From a virus (lineage: Duplodnaviria > Caudoviricetes), in the IMG/VR virus record IMGVR_UViG_3300044675_004382, positions 1 through 34,137 of that record: 34,137 bases of DNA. One strand, 5' to 3'. Below are positions 11,341-23,840 of the stretch, in pieces (the first letter of the stretch is position 1; the number at the start of each line of letters is the position of its first letter). The notes under the pieces were generated by a model. That model saw only the letters and a program-made list of their open reading frames with translations, ran no database searches and was not told the DNA's origin. A program made the translations under genes and the position numbers.

Positions 11341-11465
11341 TGGCAAAAGCAAAAACAAGCGACGCCCGAAAGGTTACCTTTGGCAAACGCAAAACCGGAA
11401 GGGCAAAGAAAAGCTACAACAAGCATTCACCTAAACCAAAAGATTATCGTGGACAAGGCAGATAA
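11340..11465 (+). CDS. Small basic protein ending YRGQGR (41 aa; not in ORF track)
   Basis: MAKAKTSDARKVTFGKRKTGRAKKSYNKHSPKPKDYRGQGR; TAATG coupling; this C-terminus recurs among aquatic phage small proteins. Confidence 0.8.
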   Translation: MAKAKTSDARKVTFGKRKTGRAKKSYNKHSPKPKDYRGQGR

Positions 11466-12474
11466 CATAATACAAGTACTAGGCATAACGCAAAAGGTAA
11501 GCGGGTGCGGGTGGCATAGGGTTATGCTACCTTTGGCATTTATGCCCGATGCTTACAACCATATTTGCAACGTACCAACCGAAGAAATACTTAAAGAGCG
11601 TGGCTTTGATTTATTGCTTTACAATAGATTTAGTCCTTTTGACAATGCATGGAAAGAAACCAAGAAGCACTTTAAAGTTGTAATGGACTTAGACGATGAC
11701 TGGGAGCTACCATACAACCATCCTTTATTCCCATTCTATGAGCCACAAAAGAAGCGCGTTGTAAATAACATTTTTAACGCGGACTTGGTTACTTGCACCA
11801 ACGAACGCATTGCCGATAAGGTAAGCAAATACAATAAAAACATTTTGGTATTACCTAACTGTATTCCACTAGGCGAACAACAATACACCGAGTTTAGACA
11901 CGATAGCGATAACGTGCGCATCTTTTGGGCGGGCGGTAGTACACACATGGACGATATTAAAATACTTAACGGCCCATTCAAACGTTTAATAGGCATGAAA
12001 GGTATTGAGTTAGTCCTGGGCGGTTATACCGACACCGACGAGAATAGTAAATATTATTGGGATAAGTTATGGCACCTATTTACCAACGGCGGACGCATAC
12101 CAAATAGAAAGCTAAACGGAACCTTGCCGAATGAATACATGACCCACTATGAACACGCCGACATTATGGTAATACCTTTAGAGGATAGCCCATGGCATGC
12201 TTGTAAAAGTAACCTTAAAATTCTTGAGGCGGCAAGCAAACGCATTGCCGTAATATGTAGCGACGTTGAACCTTACAACAAAGACAAAGACGCACCAGTG
12301 CTTTGGGTTAAAAAGCAAGGCGACTGGTTTAAGCACATACATTTTTTAGTTAACAATCCGCAAGAAAGGATCCGCATGGGTAATGACCTTTACGAGTGGG
12401 CAAAAACAAAATACAACTATGAGTCAATTGGAGCCACTAGACGCCAAGCATTTGGCGACCTTATTAAAGCATAA
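11380..12474 (+). CDS. GT-B (GT4-like) glycosyltransferase; start uncertain (TTG 11380 or ATA 11467)
   Basis: SGCGWHR, MDLDDDW, FWAGGSTH, ADIMVIPL, KSNLKILEAA...ICSDVEPY. Confidence 0.85.
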   Translation: MANAKPEGQRKATTSIHLNQKIIVDKADNIIQVLGITQKVSGCGWHRVMLPLAFMPDAYNHICNVPTEEILKERGFDLLLYNRFSPFDNAWKETKKHFKVVMDLDDDWELPYNHPLFPFYEPQKKRVVNNIFNADLVTCTNERIADKVSKYNKNILVLPNCIPLGEQQYTEFRHDSDNVRIFWAGGSTHMDDIKILNGPFKRLIGMKGIELVLGGYTDTDENSKYYWDKLWHLFTNGGRIPNRKLNGTLPNEYMTHYEHADIMVIPLEDSPWHACKSNLKILEAASKRIAVICSDVEPYNKDKDAPVLWVKKQGDWFKHIHFLVNNPQERIRMGNDLYEWAKTKYNYESIGATRRQAFGDLIKA

Positions 12475-12661
12475 ACACTTTTACGACTTGTTTAAAACAA
12501 GCGGCGAACTTGTAGGTTTTACGCATGAAATACAAAACGAACTTTTAGAAGTCATGCGCACTAAAGACCCACTTTACCAATACAACGGGCGCTGCGGTGC
12601 TTGCGTAGGAAACTTTTTAGCTAACGTTTATAATACATTCAATGAGCAACTTCATTCATAA
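12419..12661 (+). CDS. Hypothetical protein with CxxC
   Basis: CGAC near the C-terminus; ATG 12419 chosen as the likelier start. Confidence 0.65.
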   Translation: MSQLEPLDAKHLATLLKHKHFYDLFKTSGELVGFTHEIQNELLEVMRTKDPLYQYNGRCGACVGNFLANVYNTFNEQLHS

Positions 12662-13127
12662 AACTGCAATAGTAGGGCCAAACGTAACCCTTGGCGACAA
12701 TGTTTATATTGGGCCTTATTGTGTAATAGGCGAACCAGCCGAGCATAAGTTATTTTGGAAGGCACCAATAGGCGAAGTAGTAATTGGTGACGACTGCGTA
12801 ATAACGGGCCACGTAACTATTGACGCCGGCACTATTGATAAAACAATTATAGGCGCCGGAACTTGGATGCTAAAGCATAGCCACGTCGGGCATGACTGCA
12901 TTATAGGTAATAACGTGACAATAAGCTGCGGCGCAAAGATAGGCGGACATACTAGGATTGGTAATGGGTGTAATATAGGGCTTAACGCGGTGATTCATCA
13001 AAAGCAAGTAATTGCGCCAGGATGCATGATTGGTATGGGTGCCGTAGTTACACGTAAGCTTTATACTACGCACGCTACTAAGTATGCCGGCAACCCAGCA
13101 AAGGAAATAGGTAAAAACATAGTGTAA
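12642..13127 (+). CDS. Hexapeptide-repeat (LpxA-like) acyl/acetyltransferase
   Basis: Left-handed beta-helix repeats (IGPYCV, IGDDCV, IGNNVT, IGNGCN); HVGHDC resembles the LpxA catalytic His motif; YAGNPAK. Confidence 0.88.
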   Translation: MSNFIHKTAIVGPNVTLGDNVYIGPYCVIGEPAEHKLFWKAPIGEVVIGDDCVITGHVTIDAGTIDKTIIGAGTWMLKHSHVGHDCIIGNNVTISCGAKIGGHTRIGNGCNIGLNAVIHQKQVIAPGCMIGMGAVVTRKLYTTHATKYAGNPAKEIGKNIV

Positions 13128-13750
13128 TGAAAGTACTAATAGCCGGTCTTGCATACGGGAATAGGCCAAAAAATATTTTAAACGATAACCTAACTAAAGC
13201 GGGTTACCCTTATACTTATATTGAAATAAACACCGAAGGCATTGCCAACGCTATGAACGAAGCTATTGACATAGCCGGAGTTGATGGCTACAATGCCATT
13301 GCTTATTTGGCGAACGATATAATCGAGCCGGATAATTGGCTAGCAAAAAAGGTTGAGGCCTTGCAAACATATCCCAGCGCGGGCATTGTTTCTAGTAGTT
13401 TAGATCAAGTTAGGTTTACAATACAATGCGAGCATATTATTTGCAACTGGCTTTTAAGCATGGACGTAGTTGACAAGATAGGCATCTTTAACGAGTCGAT
13501 GTTTCCTTATGGGCCAATAGACCTGGACTACTGCGAGCGGGCCAACCTAGCGGGTTTTAATACTTACTATGTAAAGGAATGCCAAGCATTTCATCAAGGG
13601 AGCCACGCCACCGGTAATGAATACGGATGGGATAAAGGCGCTTTAATTGACAAATATTGGAAACAACACGTTGAGGATGTTTACTTATACCGCAACGGAT
13701 TAAAAGATTTAAAACATGGAAATAAGAGAACACGTGACAAGAAAGTTTAA
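13127..13750 (+). CDS. GT-A (GT2-like) glycosyltransferase
   Basis: GIANAMN, YLANDI, VVDKIGIFNE...YGPIDLDYCERA..AGF. Confidence 0.78.
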   Translation: MKVLIAGLAYGNRPKNILNDNLTKAGYPYTYIEINTEGIANAMNEAIDIAGVDGYNAIAYLANDIIEPDNWLAKKVEALQTYPSAGIVSSSLDQVRFTIQCEHIICNWLLSMDVVDKIGIFNESMFPYGPIDLDYCERANLAGFNTYYVKECQAFHQGSHATGNEYGWDKGALIDKYWKQHVEDVYLYRNGLKDLKHGNKRTRDKKV

Positions 13751-17923: not shown

Positions 17924-20900
17924 ATGACTAGAATATTTATAGAAGGATATGAACTAGATTTAACGCAAGGCTTAAGCAATCAAATAACTTATGCCATTGA
18001 TGACTTACAAAACTTAGATAGCAAAAGTACTGCTTTTACTAAAACAATTGTTTTGCCTGGAACTGCTAACAATAATAAGCTTCTAGGTAATATATTTGAG
18101 TTTAACAATGCTAACTTTTTTAATGAATCGGATCAAAATGTTCTAGCAAACTTTAACGCATCGGTAAGGGCAAATGCAAGAATTGAAGTCGATGGCTTGC
18201 AAATAATGAAAGGCACTTTAAGGCTTCTTGAAATTATCCACGTAGACGGAGCAATAGAATATGAGTGCGCTATATTTGGTGAACTAGGTGGCTTTATTTC
18301 TGCGCTTGGTAATTTACGCCTTGAAGATTTAGATTTTAGTGATTACAACCATAATTATACTTCGGACAATATTACTGCAAGCTGGGAGGCTAGCGGGTCT
18401 AGAGGTACAAACAATAGCGCAGCTTATGGAAGCGGTTACTACTACCCTTTAATAGATTACGGAGCCGATAGTACAAACAAGGTAGACTTTAAGCTTAATG
18501 CTTTTAGACCTTCTTTTTTTGCTAAAGAGTACATTGATAAAATGTTTCAAGATGCTAACTATACTTATACTTCTACTTTTTTAAATAGTACATTTTTCAA
18601 AAGTTTATTAATACCTAACAACCAAAAAGAATTTAGCAAAAAAAGTAGTATTGCTTTTAAAGTATTAAATGAAGGCGATTTTTATACAAACGAATCTGGT
18701 GGCAACGTGCCGATAGGATTTAGCACTACAACTACGCTAGGTAATTTTAATGTCAACGGCACTTATGATTTATTTACTTATAATACTTCAACTGTTTTAA
18801 CCGGATCGCTTAACCTTACTTTAAAAGGTAGCATTGTTTATGGAACACCTATTGGTATTGTAACTTTTAAGGTATTAAAAAACGGAGTTGTAATACATAC
18901 CCAAAATACAACCGCAACTACATTTGATTTAAGCATTGTTATAAACGAAGTTAGTTTTACTTTAAACGATACCTTGCAAATTGCATGGTCTGGCCCTTAT
19001 AGAGAAGACACATACTTTAGCGAACTAACAATTGATAGCGGTAGTGTTACAATTAATAGCGTTGCTATTTATGTACCATTTAACCATGACGATCCTATAA
19101 CTGTTAACGACACAATTCCTAAAGGTATTTTCTTAAAAGACTTCTTTACGTCGATTATGAAAATGTTTAACTTGGTAGTGTATGAAGATAAGTTTACAAC
19201 TAATAATTTAATCATTGAGCCTTATAAAGATTTTTTCACAAACGAGCGCATAGATTGGTCAAACAAATTAGATAGGTCAAAGCCTATTAAATTAAAACCA
19301 ATGAGTGAACTTAATGCAAGATACTACAAATTAAAATATGCGCAAGACAACGACTTCTATAATGAAAACTATCGCAAGGCATTTAATGAAGGATATGCTG
19401 ATAGGATATATGATACTGAATATGAATTTAGTAAAGATTCGGAAGATGTTTCCATAATATTTGCTCCAAGTGTTTTATATAAAGCAACCGGAACCGATAA
19501 AACATATCCGACTATTTACAAAAAGTCAAATAATAACGCGGTTGAGGATCGTATGGATTCTGTTATAAGAATTGGTATGGTTAAAAAAATAACCGGCGTT
19601 GCAAACTGGCGCATACAAAAACAAGATGGAAGTGGTAACTGGTCTGGAGTTTTAAATGCTTTTGGTTATTTTGGACACCTTAACGATCCTAACACGCCCA
19701 CAATAGATTTAAATTTTGGCGCACCCTTAGAAATTTATTTTAGTAATAGTAGCTACCCAAGTGCTAATTTATTTAATACTTACTATTCGCAGTATATGTC
19801 CGAAATAACCGACAAAGATAGTAGGTTATTAACCGGATTTTTTGATTTAACAAATATTGACATTTTTAATTTAGACTTTGCAAAGTATATATTTTTGCAA
19901 GGTGGCCTTTATAAATTAATAAAGGTTTATGATTATAGCGCCGAGACTAACGATACCACAAAGGTAGACTTGCTTCGTGTTATTGATGCGGTTACTGCGG
20001 AGGTAGGGCCAACAACAACTACTACAACAACAACTACAAGCACAACAACTACTACAACAACTTTAGCTACTTTCATCGCATCTTATAGCGAGGTGAGTGC
20101 TTACGATGTGTGTAATAATGTTTGTCCTAACCCAGCAAGGCCAGTAGAAACATTTACAATTTTAGCTGGTGGTAATTCGCTTTGCACTGCTACCGAGTTA
20201 ACAAGTCCTGGCATAGCTAGCGGTGATATTGGGCCAGTCTTTTGGGTAAGTGATTGTAGCGGAACTAGCAGACAATTTATAGTAATACTTGAAAGTGGTT
20301 ACTATGTAGCGATATGGGCTGAAGAGACTTGTCAAACTTGTCCAGCGGTTACAACTACAACTACTAGTACAACAACTACTACAACAACGGCTGCGCCTAC
20401 AACAACAACTAGTACGACAACTACTACAACAACGCCAGCACCGACTACAACTACAAGTACAACAACTACTACAACAACGGCTGCGACAACAACTACTACA
20501 ACAACAGCAGCGCCTACAACTACAACTAGTACAACAACTACTACAACAACTTATGCTGCAATTACATTAAGTGTTAGTCCAGGTTGTACTGGTGGAGAAG
20601 GAACCGGAACTGTTACTGCTAATGGATTTAGTGGCGGTACAGAAAGTTTTGAGTACATTGCAATAAGTTCTAGTTCAAGTAGTGATGCGCTTAGCAAATT
20701 AGACAATTCAGCAACTAGAGACTTTTTAGGAGGTGCTACCGAGTATACTTATACTATGCTTGCTAACGCAACTTATTACGTAGCAATTATGGATGACCTT
20801 GGAAATAAAGGTGTAAGTTCTGGAGCGGTTGTAAATTGTGTAACTACTACAACTACTACTACAACTACTACTACAACAAGTACAACAACTACTACTACAA

Positions 20901-21268
20901 CGGCTGCAACTACAACAACTACAAGTACAACAACTACTACAACTACTTTAGGTTATGCTTTTGTTGACATTGCTAACAACACGGCTGGTACTGACATTAC
21001 AAATATAACTGTTGGCGGAGTGCAAGTAGACGGAGCAGTTTTCCCAATAGTTGCTGGTGATGGCGCAAGTGCTACAACAACTGAAACCGGTGCATCTAAA
21101 ACCATAGTTGTATCTTACACAAATGTAGGTGGTGACTCTGTTGAGGTTATAGATACTGCATCAAATCTTAATTGTACTGGTGCTGGATCAACAAGTAGAT
21201 CCTTTGCTGGACAAGTTGTAAGCGACGGCGGTACATTATCAATCCAAATGTTTGACGGATCATGCTAA
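17924..21268 (+). CDS. Tail tip/hub protein with a C-terminal mucin-like Thr-rich extension
   Basis: N-terminal ~690 aa tail-like (FTKTIVLPGTANN, YYYPLIDYG, IMKMFNL, IDWSNKLD), then three poly-Thr tracts separated by Cys-containing domains. Confidence 0.8.
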   Translation: MTRIFIEGYELDLTQGLSNQITYAIDDLQNLDSKSTAFTKTIVLPGTANNNKLLGNIFEFNNANFFNESDQNVLANFNASVRANARIEVDGLQIMKGTLRLLEIIHVDGAIEYECAIFGELGGFISALGNLRLEDLDFSDYNHNYTSDNITASWEASGSRGTNNSAAYGSGYYYPLIDYGADSTNKVDFKLNAFRPSFFAKEYIDKMFQDANYTYTSTFLNSTFFKSLLIPNNQKEFSKKSSIAFKVLNEGDFYTNESGGNVPIGFSTTTTLGNFNVNGTYDLFTYNTSTVLTGSLNLTLKGSIVYGTPIGIVTFKVLKNGVVIHTQNTTATTFDLSIVINEVSFTLNDTLQIAWSGPYREDTYFSELTIDSGSVTINSVAIYVPFNHDDPITVNDTIPKGIFLKDFFTSIMKMFNLVVYEDKFTTNNLIIEPYKDFFTNERIDWSNKLDRSKPIKLKPMSELNARYYKLKYAQDNDFYNENYRKAFNEGYADRIYDTEYEFSKDSEDVSIIFAPSVLYKATGTDKTYPTIYKKSNNNAVEDRMDSVIRIGMVKKITGVANWRIQKQDGSGNWSGVLNAFGYFGHLNDPNTPTIDLNFGAPLEIYFSNSSYPSANLFNTYYSQYMSEITDKDSRLLTGFFDLTNIDIFNLDFAKYIFLQGGLYKLIKVYDYSAETNDTTKVDLLRVIDAVTAEVGPTTTTTTTTTSTTTTTTTLATFIASYSEVSAYDVCNNVCPNPARPVETFTILAGGNSLCTATELTSPGIASGDIGPVFWVSDCSGTSRQFIVILESGYYVAIWAEETCQTCPAVTTTTTSTTTTTTTAAPTTTTSTTTTTTTPAPTTTTSTTTTTTTAATTTTTTTAAPTTTTSTTTTTTTYAAITLSVSPGCTGGEGTGTVTANGFSGGTESFEYIAISSSSSSDALSKLDNSATRDFLGGATEYTYTMLANATYYVAIMDDLGNKGVSSGAVVNCVTTTTTTTTTTTTSTTTTTTTAATTTTTSTTTTTTTLGYAFVDIANNTAGTDITNITVGGVQVDGAVFPIVAGDGASATTTETGASKTIVVSYTNVGGDSVEVIDTASNLNCTGAGSTSRSFAGQVVSDGGTLSIQMFDGSC
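20012..20062 (+). repeat. Thr tract 1 (T9-S-T7)
   Basis: ACA/ACT codon run, in frame. Confidence 0.95.
20351..20551 (+). repeat. Thr tract 2 (67 aa; xAP-T4-S-T7 units)
   Basis: Approximately 45-nt degenerate tandem units, in frame. Confidence 0.95.
20843..20947 (+). repeat. Thr tract 3 (T12-S-T7-AA-T5-S-T7)
   Basis: ACA/ACT codon run, in frame. Confidence 0.95.
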
Positions 21269-21281
21269 TAAAAAAAACAAT

Positions 21282-22247
21282 ATGATATACATTTGCACAC
21301 AACCTAAGATAGTTTATTACGCATGGCACCTAGAAGTTATGCTCACCAACTTTAAGTCGGTGGGCATACCCGATGATAAAATTCATGTTTTATTATCGGT
21401 AAGTAAAGACCAAAACGATAGGACAAACTGGCCCGAAACAAAAGCAATGTATGAAAGGCTAAAAGAAAAGTTTAACACAATAGCTTTTTTTGAGTACACC
21501 GATACAAGGGTGATGCCTAATTACATACCAAGCGTTATTATGAATGCCGTAAAGCATCACTATAAAGCTTACCCATATCTGCAAAATGAAAATGTGTTTT
21601 TACACGATTGCGATATGATATTCACTAAGCCGGTAGACTTTACCGATTTAGAACAAGACGACACATGTTATGTAAGCGACTCTAAAAGTTTTGTTTGGAG
21701 TGATTACATCCTAGAAAAAGGACAAGACCTTTATGAAGACATGTGCGATATTGTAGGCCTGGATTATAGCGTGCCAATTAAACACCGATTACATAGCGGA
21801 GGCTCCCAGTATATATTTAAAAAAACCGACTTTAGATTTTGGCAAAAAGTAGAAAGCGATAGCGTGGCTTTGTTTGATTACTTCCAAAAGAGCGAGCCGT
21901 TAAGAGTACAAAAGAATCCAAGTTATTACGGCATCCAACAATTTACTGCGGGGATGTGGGGTATGCTTTGGAATTGTTGGTACTACGACCTAGATGTAAA
22001 AATAACCGATAGGCTTGATTTTTGCTGGGGTACCGACCCGATAGAAAAATGGAGCAAGTGCGATATTTTCCATAATTCTGGGGTGACTTACGATATTGGT
22101 AAAAATCATAATATATTCTATAAAGGAGGTTACACCGACAAATTACCTTACGATGATGTAATGAATACCGAATACAATGAGGCCTTTGGGTCTTATAATT
22201 ATACTAACCTTATAAGACAAGTAGCACAAAACACTTGTTTAAAATAA
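21282..22247 (+). CDS. GT-A glycosyltransferase resembling peptide O-glycosyltransferases (GT95/GT96-like)
   Basis: DxD motif FLHDCDMIFTKP; YYAWHLEVMLTNF; NYIPS; FTAGMW; late FHNSG; ATG 21282 after an A-rich leader. Confidence 0.7.
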   Translation: MIYICTQPKIVYYAWHLEVMLTNFKSVGIPDDKIHVLLSVSKDQNDRTNWPETKAMYERLKEKFNTIAFFEYTDTRVMPNYIPSVIMNAVKHHYKAYPYLQNENVFLHDCDMIFTKPVDFTDLEQDDTCYVSDSKSFVWSDYILEKGQDLYEDMCDIVGLDYSVPIKHRLHSGGSQYIFKKTDFRFWQKVESDSVALFDYFQKSEPLRVQKNPSYYGIQQFTAGMWGMLWNCWYYDLDVKITDRLDFCWGTDPIEKWSKCDIFHNSGVTYDIGKNHNIFYKGGYTDKLPYDDVMNTEYNEAFGSYNYTNLIRQVAQNTCLK

Positions 22248-22253
22248 TAACAC

Positions 22254-23840
22254 ATGGCAACTAAAAAGACGCAAGTAGTAGTAGAAATAAAAACCGATTC
22301 GACGCAAGCAACCGCCGAAGTCAATAAAACCAAAGACGAGGTCGCCGGTATTGGCAAGGCCGCCGCCGGTAGTATTGCCGAACTTAAAGAACTTAAAAAA
22401 GCTTTAAGAAATGCCGCCGCTGGTTCCGATGAATTTAAGCAATTATCCGCACAAATTAGAGACGTTGAAGATGGCATTGAAAATGCTAAAGTAGGCGCCA
22501 ACGATTTTGCCGGTGCTTTAGAAAATGCTGGTGGGCCGGTTGGAATGCTAGGTAAAGGAATAAGACAACTAGAAATATTTACCTCTTCATGGGGTGCCGC
22601 TTTAAAGGCCACTGGTATTGGTTTACTTGTTGGCTTAGTTGGCGCACTTGGCGCAGCGTTTGCTAAGAACGAAGACGCAATGAAAAAGCTTGATCCTATT
22701 ATTACTCAATTTGGTAGGATACTTAATGGCATTTTAAGAGCAATGGAGCCGTTAATTGATGCATTTATAAACCTTGCAGAAAAGGCTTTGCCTTATGTTA
22801 GCAAAGGTTTTGAAGTTGCATATAGCGCTTTAAGTTCATTCTTACAAGGCGTTGGATTAGTAGGCTCGGCGGTTAAAAAGTTTATAAGTGGTGACTTTGC
22901 CGGAGCATGGGATGACGCAAAAAAATCCGTTACAGAGTTTGGTACAAGATACGAAGATGCAAATAAACGTTTTATTGCCGGAACTAAAGAGCTTACCGAC
23001 AAAGAAAAAGAAGAACAAGCAACTAGACTAGCTAACCAAAAAGCGGCTGCGGAAAAACGCGAAGCGGAACTTTTAAAGGCGCAAGAAAAAGAACAAGCTT
23101 TACTTTTAAAAAGTTATGAAGATTATTTAAAACGTAGGGAGTTTGCACGTAAAAATCTAGAAGGAGTTTATAATCAAGAAATAAAAGCAAATGCAGAGCA
23201 AGACCAAATTGAAGCCGATAAAAAAAGGAATGACCAAATAAACAAAGACCTAGAATGGCAAACAAAATCAATAGCAAATGTAAGACAAACTGGTGTTCAA
23301 ATATTAGCTATTGACCAAGCAAATGCAGACGCAAGGGCAAAATTAACAAACGAAGAACGTAATTTAAGAGTTAATGCCGCTTATGATATTGCAGACGCTA
23401 GCATGGCTTTAGGTGCTATAATTGGCGAGCAAACCAAAGCTGGCAAGGCTTTAGGTGTGGCAAGTGCTTTAATAAATACTTATACTGGAGCGACCGAAGT
23501 ATTAAGAGCAAAGTCCGTATTACCGGAGCCATTCGGTACAATACAAAAAATTGCATCCGTTGCCGGTATTATTGCCATGGGTATTAGGTCGGTTAAGTCT
23601 ATTATGTCCGTGCAAGTGCCAAGTGTAAGAGGTGCAAGCGGTGGCGGTGGCTCTACGCCAAGCATTCCTACTATGAACGTAAGCGCACCTTTGATGGCGC
23701 AAGCAAGCACAACTACTTTAAACCAAGCGCAAGTTAACCAAATAGGCAACGTAGCGGCAAGGGCATTCGTAGTTGAAAGCGACGTAAGCGGTAACCAAGA
23801 ACGCATCCAAAGACTTAACCGCGCGGCTAGAATTAATTAA
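22254..23840 (+). CDS. Tape measure protein
   Basis: Ala/Gly/Lys-rich helical protein; ATGIGLLV and GDFAGAWDDAK motifs; C-terminal RAFVVESDV. Confidence 0.8.
   Translation: MATKKTQVVVEIKTDSTQATAEVNKTKDEVAGIGKAAAGSIAELKELKKALRNAAAGSDEFKQLSAQIRDVEDGIENAKVGANDFAGALENAGGPVGMLGKGIRQLEIFTSSWGAALKATGIGLLVGLVGALGAAFAKNEDAMKKLDPIITQFGRILNGILRAMEPLIDAFINLAEKALPYVSKGFEVAYSALSSFLQGVGLVGSAVKKFISGDFAGAWDDAKKSVTEFGTRYEDANKRFIAGTKELTDKEKEEQATRLANQKAAAEKREAELLKAQEKEQALLLKSYEDYLKRREFARKNLEGVYNQEIKANAEQDQIEADKKRNDQINKDLEWQTKSIANVRQTGVQILAIDQANADARAKLTNEERNLRVNAAYDIADASMALGAIIGEQTKAGKALGVASALINTYTGATEVLRAKSVLPEPFGTIQKIASVAGIIAMGIRSVKSIMSVQVPSVRGASGGGGSTPSIPTMNVSAPLMAQASTTTLNQAQVNQIGNVAARAFVVESDVSGNQERIQRLNRAARIN

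Follow-up and report, generated by a model that had tools for sequence, protein, structure and literature searches.

What does a bacteriophage gain from a tail-tip protein that ends in long runs of threonine, and why does the next gene appear to encode a glycosyltransferase? Both genes lie in a 34,137-bp virus record from lake-water metagenomes (IMG/VR IMGVR_UViG_3300044675_004382), which is estimated to be complete and which, in its entirety, is the stretch of DNA analysed here (the 'window'). The answer we consider likely is that the enzyme works in the cytoplasm and O-glycosylates poly-Thr tags on the phage's own virion proteins. Two lines of evidence, a predicted glycosyltransferase fold and the joint presence or absence of enzyme and tracts, strongly support the view that the enzyme is dedicated to these tracts, as a sequence-only reading of the window had proposed.

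The tail-tip protein and the adjacent enzyme

The C-terminal part of the tip protein is a string of three small domains on three Thr tracts (Table 1). The sequence-only reading had described tracts of 17, 67 and 35 residues, seven S-T7 units and AAP/PAP hinges, and all are present in the open reading frame (ORF). The unit occurs exactly seven times, the hinges are AAP, PAP or AA, and the tract residues are Thr, Ser, Ala and Pro. The Thr codons are a mix of ACA and ACT, with at most three identical codons in a row, so the tracts are not a simple microsatellite, and slippage of that kind is ruled out as their origin. Nor are they an assembly artefact, since Thr tracts recur in contigs assembled independently. 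Some contig joints between tracts, which are short and were probably contributed by poly-Thr DNA from elsewhere, were not used. Elsewhere in the 34 kb, no frame contains another stretch with seven or more Thr in 12 residues.

The body of the protein is a predicted tail-tip hub, because its model matches baseplate-hub chains along its length. The model spans residues 1–692 and is of moderate confidence (see Table 1 for its mean predicted local distance difference test score, pLDDT); many gp27-like hub chains align with residues 1–690 at Z 10–13, among them the baseplates of cyanophage A-1(L) (Z 13.1, root-mean-square deviation (rmsd) 4.3, 276 residues aligned) and phage 7-7-1 (Z 12.4), and gp44 of Mu (Z 11.6). 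The earlier identification of this protein as a tail tip is thereby backed, and its hub, to judge by the fold family, is probably trimeric. A jelly-roll domain inserted in the hub resembles TNF, C1q and BclA-CTD-type domains and the CBD of the A-1(L) short fibre (Z ~13); it may bind a receptor, independently of the Thr string.

The domains beyond the hub are small, mostly contain Cys, and are spaced by the tracts. Ten domain types occur in nine orders among the 15 tips compared (A-C-B in the window, A-F-C-B in a near-copy), and a relative that is 98% identical has one additional domain within tract 2. Domain A has no PHROG match below E 0.26, and a PHROG search with B and C returned none; since the domains lack a family match, it is their position that suggests an adhesin role.

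Table 1. Positions in the window of the tail-tip protein, the enzyme and their parts
Feature	Position	Strand	Basis
Tail-tip protein, 1114 residues, hub body, then three small C-terminal domains strung on Thr tracts	17924..21268	+	ORF, model, fold match
Predicted baseplate-hub (gp27/Tal/VgrG-type) fold, residues 1–690	17924..19993	+	fold match, model mean pLDDT 66
C1q/TNF-like jelly-roll domain inserted in hub, residues 238–382	18635..19069	+	fold match
Thr tract 1, 17 residues (16 T, 1 S), residues 697–713	20012..20062	+	sequence
Cassette domain A, Cys-rich, 96 residues, in 13/15 compared tips	20063..20350	+	tip comparison
Thr tract 2, 67 residues (52 T), AAP/PAP hinges, residues 810–876	20351..20551	+	sequence
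Cassette domain C, 97 residues, in 5/15 compared tips	20552..20842	+	tip comparison
Thr tract 3, 35 residues (31 T), residues 974–1008	20843..20947	+	sequence
Terminal cassette domain B, 106 residues, in 10/15 compared tips	20948..21265	+	tip comparison
Predicted GT-A glycosyltransferase, 321 residues, phrog_4417 ('prophage pi2 protein 34' family)	21282..22247	+	PHROG E 2.4e-54; model pLDDT 96
DxD motif D109-C-D111	21606..21614	+	D109, D111 invariant in 32/32 aligned sequences
Q219...M225-W226 conserved block	21936..21959	+	alignments
H264-N-S-G267 conserved block	22071..22082	+	H264 invariant in both alignments (32 and 49 sequences)
Probable tape measure protein	22254..23840	+	position and composition

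The enzyme gene begins, as the sequence-only reading had it, 13 nt past the stop codon of the tip gene. Its ATG at 21282 is favoured over an in-frame TTG upstream, at 21252, because full-length homologues align from the ATG. The motifs singled out in that reading, LHDCDMIF, YYAWHLEVMLTNF, NYIPS and FTAGMW, all occur in the product. The AlphaFold2 (AF2) model has a GT-A, Rossmann-like fold along the whole chain, and D109 and D111 come just after a beta strand (residues 105–108), the position of the metal-binding motif in GT-A enzymes. The nearest structures are LgtC (Z 14.8, rmsd 3.2, 229 residues aligned), glycogenin (14.6), Skp1 galactosyltransferase (14.1) and UGGT (14.0); Foldseek agrees (UGGT, E 4.7e-7; glycogenin, E 7.1e-7). 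Further neighbours are the chain extenders GlyE and LARGE1 and, at Z ~10, the phosphotransferases CpsY and GNPTAB. The protein is predicted, then, to be a GT-A glycosyltransferase with GT8 and GT24 as its nearest folds, and the GT-A fold on which the sequence-only reading had staked its proposal is found by model and Foldseek alike. D109, D111, G174, Q219, M225, W226 and H264 vary little or not at all; in an alignment of 49 divergent members D111 is invariant and D109 is conserved in at least 90%. By analogy with GT8 chemistry, the H264 block presumably supplies a third metal ligand.

The enzyme covers positions 1–292 of the 293 in the profile of phrog_4417, a family of unknown function whose profile also matches homologues from Firmicutes and Chryseobacterium phages. 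Pfam and NCBIfam searches assign it to no family; Pfam GT8 (PF01501) is among the profiles it fails to match, despite the GT8 structures among its nearest folds. A sequence search of the PDB gave matches to TAL repeats, rejected because they cover only 31 residues, and nothing else relevant. The enzyme has no similarity to the phage's own GT2-like protein. At E-values up to 0.001 the family numbers 994 representatives (50% identity clusters), and it is found in 75–78 GenBank phage records. Within one lake sample, all 23 variant positions listed for the enzyme gene (the count covers all but four rows of the table) are third codon positions, which fits purifying selection.

Joint occurrence of enzyme and tracts

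Loci of close relatives were gathered in two ways, 31 by querying with the enzyme and 33, separately, with the capsid protein. Enzyme and tracts are both present in 25 of the 41 relatives in which the end of the tip is visible, and both absent in 16, with no mixed case; the joint absence that the sequence-only reading had put forward as a test does occur. The 25 positives are the window and 24 enzyme-fetched loci. Left out of the 41 are two enzyme loci without a tip body, five distant enzyme loci, one duplicated contig, and 16 capsid loci in which the end of the tip is not seen in order; the capsid-selected set by itself has one positive in 17. In the negative relatives the tip stops after the hub or bears other extensions, never Thr tracts, and because such close relatives exist the Thr module must be dispensable at the level of the lineage. 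A quick tree of 34 tip sequences has at least three changes of state, with the window nested among negatives, so the independent events are few. The nearest tip relatives of the window (69–81% identical), one near-copy aside, have neither enzyme nor tracts. Nine of the enzyme-less tips (L390, L394, L401-L403, L405, L406, L408 and L416) have long extensions in place of Thr stalks; the five examined in sequence are tandem Cys-rich repeats of ~42 residues, which look like an alternative extended tip fibre.

Whole records tell the same story. In 27 chosen records (11 positive, 16 negative) the enzyme occurs in 11 and T7 codon runs in the same 11. Restricted to the 19 records at least 90% complete, the comparison is 11 with both versus 8 with neither (Fisher p 1e-5, uncorrected for kinship). 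Two other transferase genes of this phage, GT4-like (11380) and GT2-like (13127), are found in all 11 positive records and, of the 8 complete negative ones, in 7. Because they are kept regardless of the tracts, the coupling is specific to the enzyme of interest. These two genes flank one for a hexapeptide acetyltransferase just before the terminase gene (11380–13750). The cluster was considered as part of the Thr system and rejected, both transferases being present with or without it (the control covered the two transferases); for the same reason, they seem to serve another purpose (e.g. modification of DNA or of the host surface).

The pairing extends well beyond the relatives of this phage. 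Thirteen of the cultured-phage loci in GenBank were opened, and in every one a Thr-rich tail is encoded no more than ~2 kb from the enzyme gene; in two, LP65 and 521B, the tails are TETQ or PTTV repeats without pure Thr runs. The hosts include Lactococcus, Lacticaseibacillus, Enterococcus, Staphylococcus and Clostridium. The tail is on the tail tube in phiFL1A, VFW, 1706, phiCTP1, bIL285, PMBT8, TPWB06, iLp84 and R9.1; on a capsid or head protein in iLp84, R9.1, phiFL1A, 1706 and phiCTP1; on small, decoration-like ORFs in iLp84, VFW, Semele, LP65 and 521B; and on multidomain proteins in MA9V-3. The Lacticaseibacillus phages are particularly informative. Two of them, iLp84 and R9.1, combine the enzyme with Thr tails on capsid and tube alike, whereas R24.2, CL1, CL2, iLp1308 and R26.9, with capsids 96–98% identical to the tailed ones, have no tails and, in the stretch examined, no enzyme. 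A sixth relative, JNU_P10, seen only up to its capsid gene, lacks the capsid tail. Since tube gene and enzyme gene are not neighbours here, one crossover does not account for this match.

Some tails are arranged in unusual ways. The Lactococcus prophage bIL285 has, beyond its capsid stop codon and in the same frame, a short Thr stretch resembling the tail on its tube, and then a second stop (L378:5946-5990); stop read-through and a recently lost tag are candidate readings. In TPWB06 (L384:5164-5926) and VFW (L035:7661-7819), a Thr-rich extension in a shifted frame overlaps the tube or capsid gene at its end, which suggests programmed frameshifting to a longer, tagged subunit.

More distant viral homologues were sampled as 64 IMG/VR loci, from which seven with less than 1.5 kb upstream were dropped. 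A tract (at least 9 Thr in 12 residues) lies within 4 kb upstream of the enzyme gene in 47 of the remaining 57 (28 of 35 clusters at 90% identity), compared with 1 of 57 downstream and none on the opposite strand. Together with the 13 cultured loci, these counts bear out the co-occurrence of enzyme and poly-Thr virion proteins that the sequence-only reading had anticipated for phage genomes. They go beyond its account as well: the putative system is widespread and is often found on capsid and tail-tube proteins, and in the tips the tracts lie between cassettes that have been shuffled.

The reverse search started from the tracts. Scanning for runs of Thr codons gave 126 loci, of which 80 had flanks, and in 42 of these Thr is encoded in the longest frame. 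The enzyme is near 8 of these 42 (7 of 40 contigs) and near none of the 38 other-frame matches (p 0.012), nor is it near any of 80 poly-Gly-pattern loci (of 121 returned; p 0.0003 against the poly-Thr loci). The 79 neighbours of 33 enzyme-less poly-Thr genes include only two other glycosyltransferases. These follow viral poly-Thr genes (L120:2881-3831 and L168:7010-7897; PF11397 GlcNAc transferase and GT2) and possibly belong to parallel systems.

Bacteria, too, have the family. It occurs in 22 of 251 genomes of the Sphingobacteriales, the order of Pedobacter, mostly as proteins of 490–770 residues, and some of the long bacterial forms are fused to GT2-like domains. In a Mucilaginibacter locus (L365, 5596–9672), a pinensin-family precursor that ends in a T5 run is followed by the enzyme gene and then by a LanC/LanM-like gene; at locus L435, a GG-leader peptide with a T5 run lies immediately upstream of the homologue. 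These bacterial loci modestly favour a peptide acceptor. Chromosomal homologues are found in five clusters of the Sphingobacteriales (L365, L435, L448, L375 and L376) that resemble those for peptides that ribosomes make and that are modified after translation (RiPPs), and may belong to undescribed glycosylated lanthipeptides.

Proposed action of the enzyme and its alternatives

Under the reading we favour, enzyme and tip would be co-transcribed as late genes. The enzyme would act in the cytoplasm before assembly, using a divalent metal and a host nucleotide-sugar to start an O-glycan on Thr, and transfer would probably be retaining, as it is in LgtC, glycogenin and UGGT. In the virion, three extended, hydrated stalks on the probably trimeric hub would then carry exchangeable domains of 70–120 residues out beyond the tail tip. 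Repetition of the Thr DNA probably also eases the exchange of these domains, which is compatible with glycosylation. Since other phages tag capsid, tail tube and small decoration proteins likewise, their particles would carry a glycan coat. The purpose is most likely physical: poly-Thr, which is prone to aggregate, would be kept extended and soluble, and surface parts would be shielded or spaced. Solubility, spacing and shielding may be the most general options for a benefit; shielding from antibodies is unlikely to be what drives it in a lake phage. The sequence-only reading had offered a further purpose, bait for the SusC/D glycan-uptake systems of a Bacteroidota host. This idea is unsupported, and it cannot be general because phages of Gram-positive hosts have the pairing also.

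Several observations weigh against this reading. Its foundations are genes and predicted folds: the order of the genes, the tracts, a conserved DxD and the shared gain and loss are observed, and glycosylation is what we infer from them. The fold, moreover, leaves the acceptor unfixed, GT8 enzymes acting on lipopolysaccharide (LPS), glycogen and proteins. In close relatives enzyme and tracts are adjacent, so that one crossover moves both together; the positives in that set were fetched by the enzyme query, and the set contains only ~3 independent changes. At ten of the 57 distant loci no qualifying tract lies upstream of the enzyme: three have a mixed T/S tract, one a tract on the other strand, two a weak Thr-rich patch and four none in view. 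Conversely, 34 of the 42 in-frame viral poly-Thr loci have no enzyme within the DNA examined, some of these loci being truncated, and among 78 control loci 11 have a tract but no enzyme; a tract, therefore, can exist without it. Presence of the enzyme all but implies a tract, and most tracts occur enzyme-free. By eye, ~14 of 33 enzyme-less poly-Thr proteins start with a signal-peptide-like sequence; such proteins may form a separate, exported class. Finally, most of 25 Sphingobacteriales matches show no Thr-run peptide in their 1.5-kb flanks, and the RiPP-like peptides of Pedobacter have no Thr run.

Other explanations can be drawn from the same facts. The tracts might be bare, flexible linkers, and their DNA the crossover points for swaps of tip domains, with the enzyme acting on a host receptor, on LPS or on phage DNA. 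The shuffling of cassettes between tracts, down to the extra domain in tract 2 of the 98%-identical relative, is what such linkers would produce; LPS enzymes are among those with GT8-like folds, the enzyme is absent from most viral poly-Thr loci, and the Enterococcus phages VPE25 and VFW do glucosylate DNA (by a separate, T4-like beta-glucosyltransferase according to the available part of PMC4999554). Linkers do not account for tails of 8–10 Thr at the very ends of capsid and tube proteins, found only in the enzyme-positive Lacticaseibacillus phages, nor for tails on genes 2 kb from the enzyme gene, nor for the same pairing in unrelated gene contexts and the bacterial homologues beside Thr-run RiPP precursors. 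At most loci opened, the enzyme gene lies in a virion module, not among replication genes. We give this explanation little credence; domain exchange at Thr DNA competes with glycosylation only if the tracts prove to be bare.

It is quite improbable, too, that another enzyme, of host or phage, adds the first sugar and that this one merely extends the chain. LgtC, GlyE and LARGE1, all extenders, are among the nearest solved folds, and the phage has its GT4-like and GT2-like genes to call upon; these, as we have seen, do not track the tracts. Pairing persists across very different hosts, and the opened Firmicutes loci have no other annotated glycosyltransferase adjacent (LP65 has a distant one). 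Fusions in the family join the enzyme to GT2, GT6, GT25 and GT29 domains, which are typical extenders, in keeping with an initiating role. Very improbable, to our minds, is a modification other than a simple O-linked sugar (e.g. a sugar-phosphate, as with Stealth/GNPT-like enzymes), or action only on the Ser of S-T7. CpsY and GNPTAB are fold neighbours, but true transferases score 4 Z units higher. Ser is regularly spaced in the tracts of the window, SGT1 acts on Ser, and mycobacteriophage glycans are on Ser; against this, the Thr runs of many Firmicutes tails contain no Ser at all (phiCTP1, the TPWB06 tube, bIL285 and 1706).

Precedents, kinship and genomic setting

Virion glycosylation as such is known, and the system proposed here would be a variant of it. 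Freeman et al. 2023 (Cell Host Microbe) reportedly describe it in the mycobacteriophages Che8, Corndog and Myrna. In the available parts of PMC12363180 and PMC12619734, the subunits of capsid and tail tube have their C-termini glycosylated by mycobacteriophage enzymes, and it is at exactly those places that the Firmicutes phages have their Thr tails. At the level of genes, the arrangement is of the same type: a phage glycosyltransferase gene linked to virion genes whose products have hydroxyl-bearing C-termini. The differences are that the hosts belong to other phyla and that here there is a dedicated poly-Thr tag, a tail-tip fibre with internal tracts and, usually, a single enzyme gene. None of the 75–78 cultured phages matched by the family (tblastn) is named as a mycobacteriophage, the Che8, Corndog and Myrna enzymes themselves not having been compared directly. 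The literature outside subscription journals and supplements (that of Freeman et al. could matter) yielded nothing on this family or on phage poly-Thr tags, and neither is described in the available parts of PMC8012813, PMC4999554, PMC7268733, PMC6821194 and PMC9853417.

With the GT8 and GT24 enzymes (LgtC, glycogenin, UGGT, pneumococcal GlyE and the PBCV-1 capsid glycosyltransferase), the phage enzyme shares the GT-A fold and the DxD, at Z 11–15 over most of the chain; it differs in sequence (8–13% identity), in the missing Pfam GT8 match and in acceptor. GlyE belongs to the pathway of serine-rich repeat proteins, adhesins on which glycosylation is started by the GT-B enzymes GtfA/B. Glycosylated RiPPs (glycocins and lanthipeptides) are a further parallel, the bacterial homologues lying in RiPP-like clusters beside precursors, some with Thr runs. 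The known glycocin enzymes are of the GT2, SunS type, and unlike this family, which is not described in the available part of a lanthipeptide survey (PMC7268733).

The sequence-only reading had likened the enzyme to the plant families GT95 (HPAT) and GT96 (SERGT1, or SGT1), and here the outcome is mixed. By language-model features these are its nearest named families (0.95–0.96). In the ESM Atlas the enzyme lies near a cluster in which 10% of members have the Pfam HPAT domain (score 0.95), and also near DUF7164; for its relative P0044, 22 of 30 named matches are in the HPAT set, and one cluster has HPAT on 58% of members (score 0.96). The Atlas itself grades such proximity as a lead. HMMER, on the other hand, found no match to PF23452 (HPAT) in three sets of family members, of 32 and 28 (both searched at E up to 10) and 89 (at E up to 0.01). 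The fold searches brought up no HPAT or SERGT1 chain, which carries no weight either way. GT95 is related to GT96 (PMC8012813, available part), and enzymes of both initiate peptide O-glycosylation on repetitive tracts of hydroxy-amino acids. They are type II membrane enzymes of the Golgi that act on hydroxyproline or Ser, whereas the phage enzyme is predicted to be soluble and anchorless, its first GT-A strand spanning residues 2–8, with Thr as candidate acceptor. It may be a remote relative, by language-model similarity alone; we do not assign it to GT95 or GT96, though its mode of action may resemble theirs.

We are evenly divided on a broader proposal: that phrog_4417 comprises undescribed cytoplasmic peptidyl-Thr O-glycosyltransferases, which in prokaryotes and viruses correspond to GT95 and GT96 and are possibly their source; that enzyme and tag form a portable one-enzyme, one-tag module by which any short poly-Thr tail is glycosylated; and that this module makes mucin-like coats and fibres in phages of Bacteroidota and Firmicutes, and Thr-glycosylated RiPPs in Bacteroidota. 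If glycosylation of the tags is real, virion glycosylation extends beyond actinobacteriophages, as a widespread trait that can be gained and lost by Bacteroidota-type phages of lakes and by cultured dairy, gut and staphylococcal phages. It would supply a function for ~1,000 clusters (50% identity) now labelled hypothetical, and account for the odd tails of Thr seen in capsid and tail proteins. Glycoengineering would gain a soluble enzyme that may turn a simple tag into mucin-type glycopeptides, and the bacterial homologues would hint that Bacteroidota make glycosylated peptide natural products of a class still to be explored. The question is directly testable in cultured dairy phages, for which near-isogenic pairs exist (iLp84 and iLp1308).

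The family has further members of note. A second homologue search reached a shorter, paralogous subfamily (244–291 residues; P0203-P0217) but no Pfam-labelled protein, and some prophages have two paralogues side by side (L374:5048-7023). In large Bacteroidota-type phages a radical SAM/SPASM gene often comes after the enzyme gene or is fused to it (L358, L362 and L091; P0045).

The host is probably a member of the Bacteroidota, to go by weak evidence. Among cultured phages, only Elizabethkingia phage TCUEAP1 (E 1e-5) and the Nonlabens phages P12024 (E 7e-6) gave matches to the tip and capsid proteins, and the best cultured match of the enzyme is in Chryseobacterium phage MA9V-3 (38%). The sequence-only reading had placed the enzyme gene between those for tail tip and tape measure. 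The hub fold upholds the former; the latter is called by position and composition, Pfam, PHROG and NCBIfam profile searches with the product of 22254–23840 having given no match. In TCUEAP1 an annotated tape measure is two genes downstream of the tip homologue. The window also encodes, by Pfam and PHROG annotation, terminase, portal, capsid-like, primase and helicase proteins. Most genes between 14134 and 29643 are unannotated by either database, and the order of virion genes there is odd: terminase, tail genes, tip, tape measure, protease and capsid, with the portal last.

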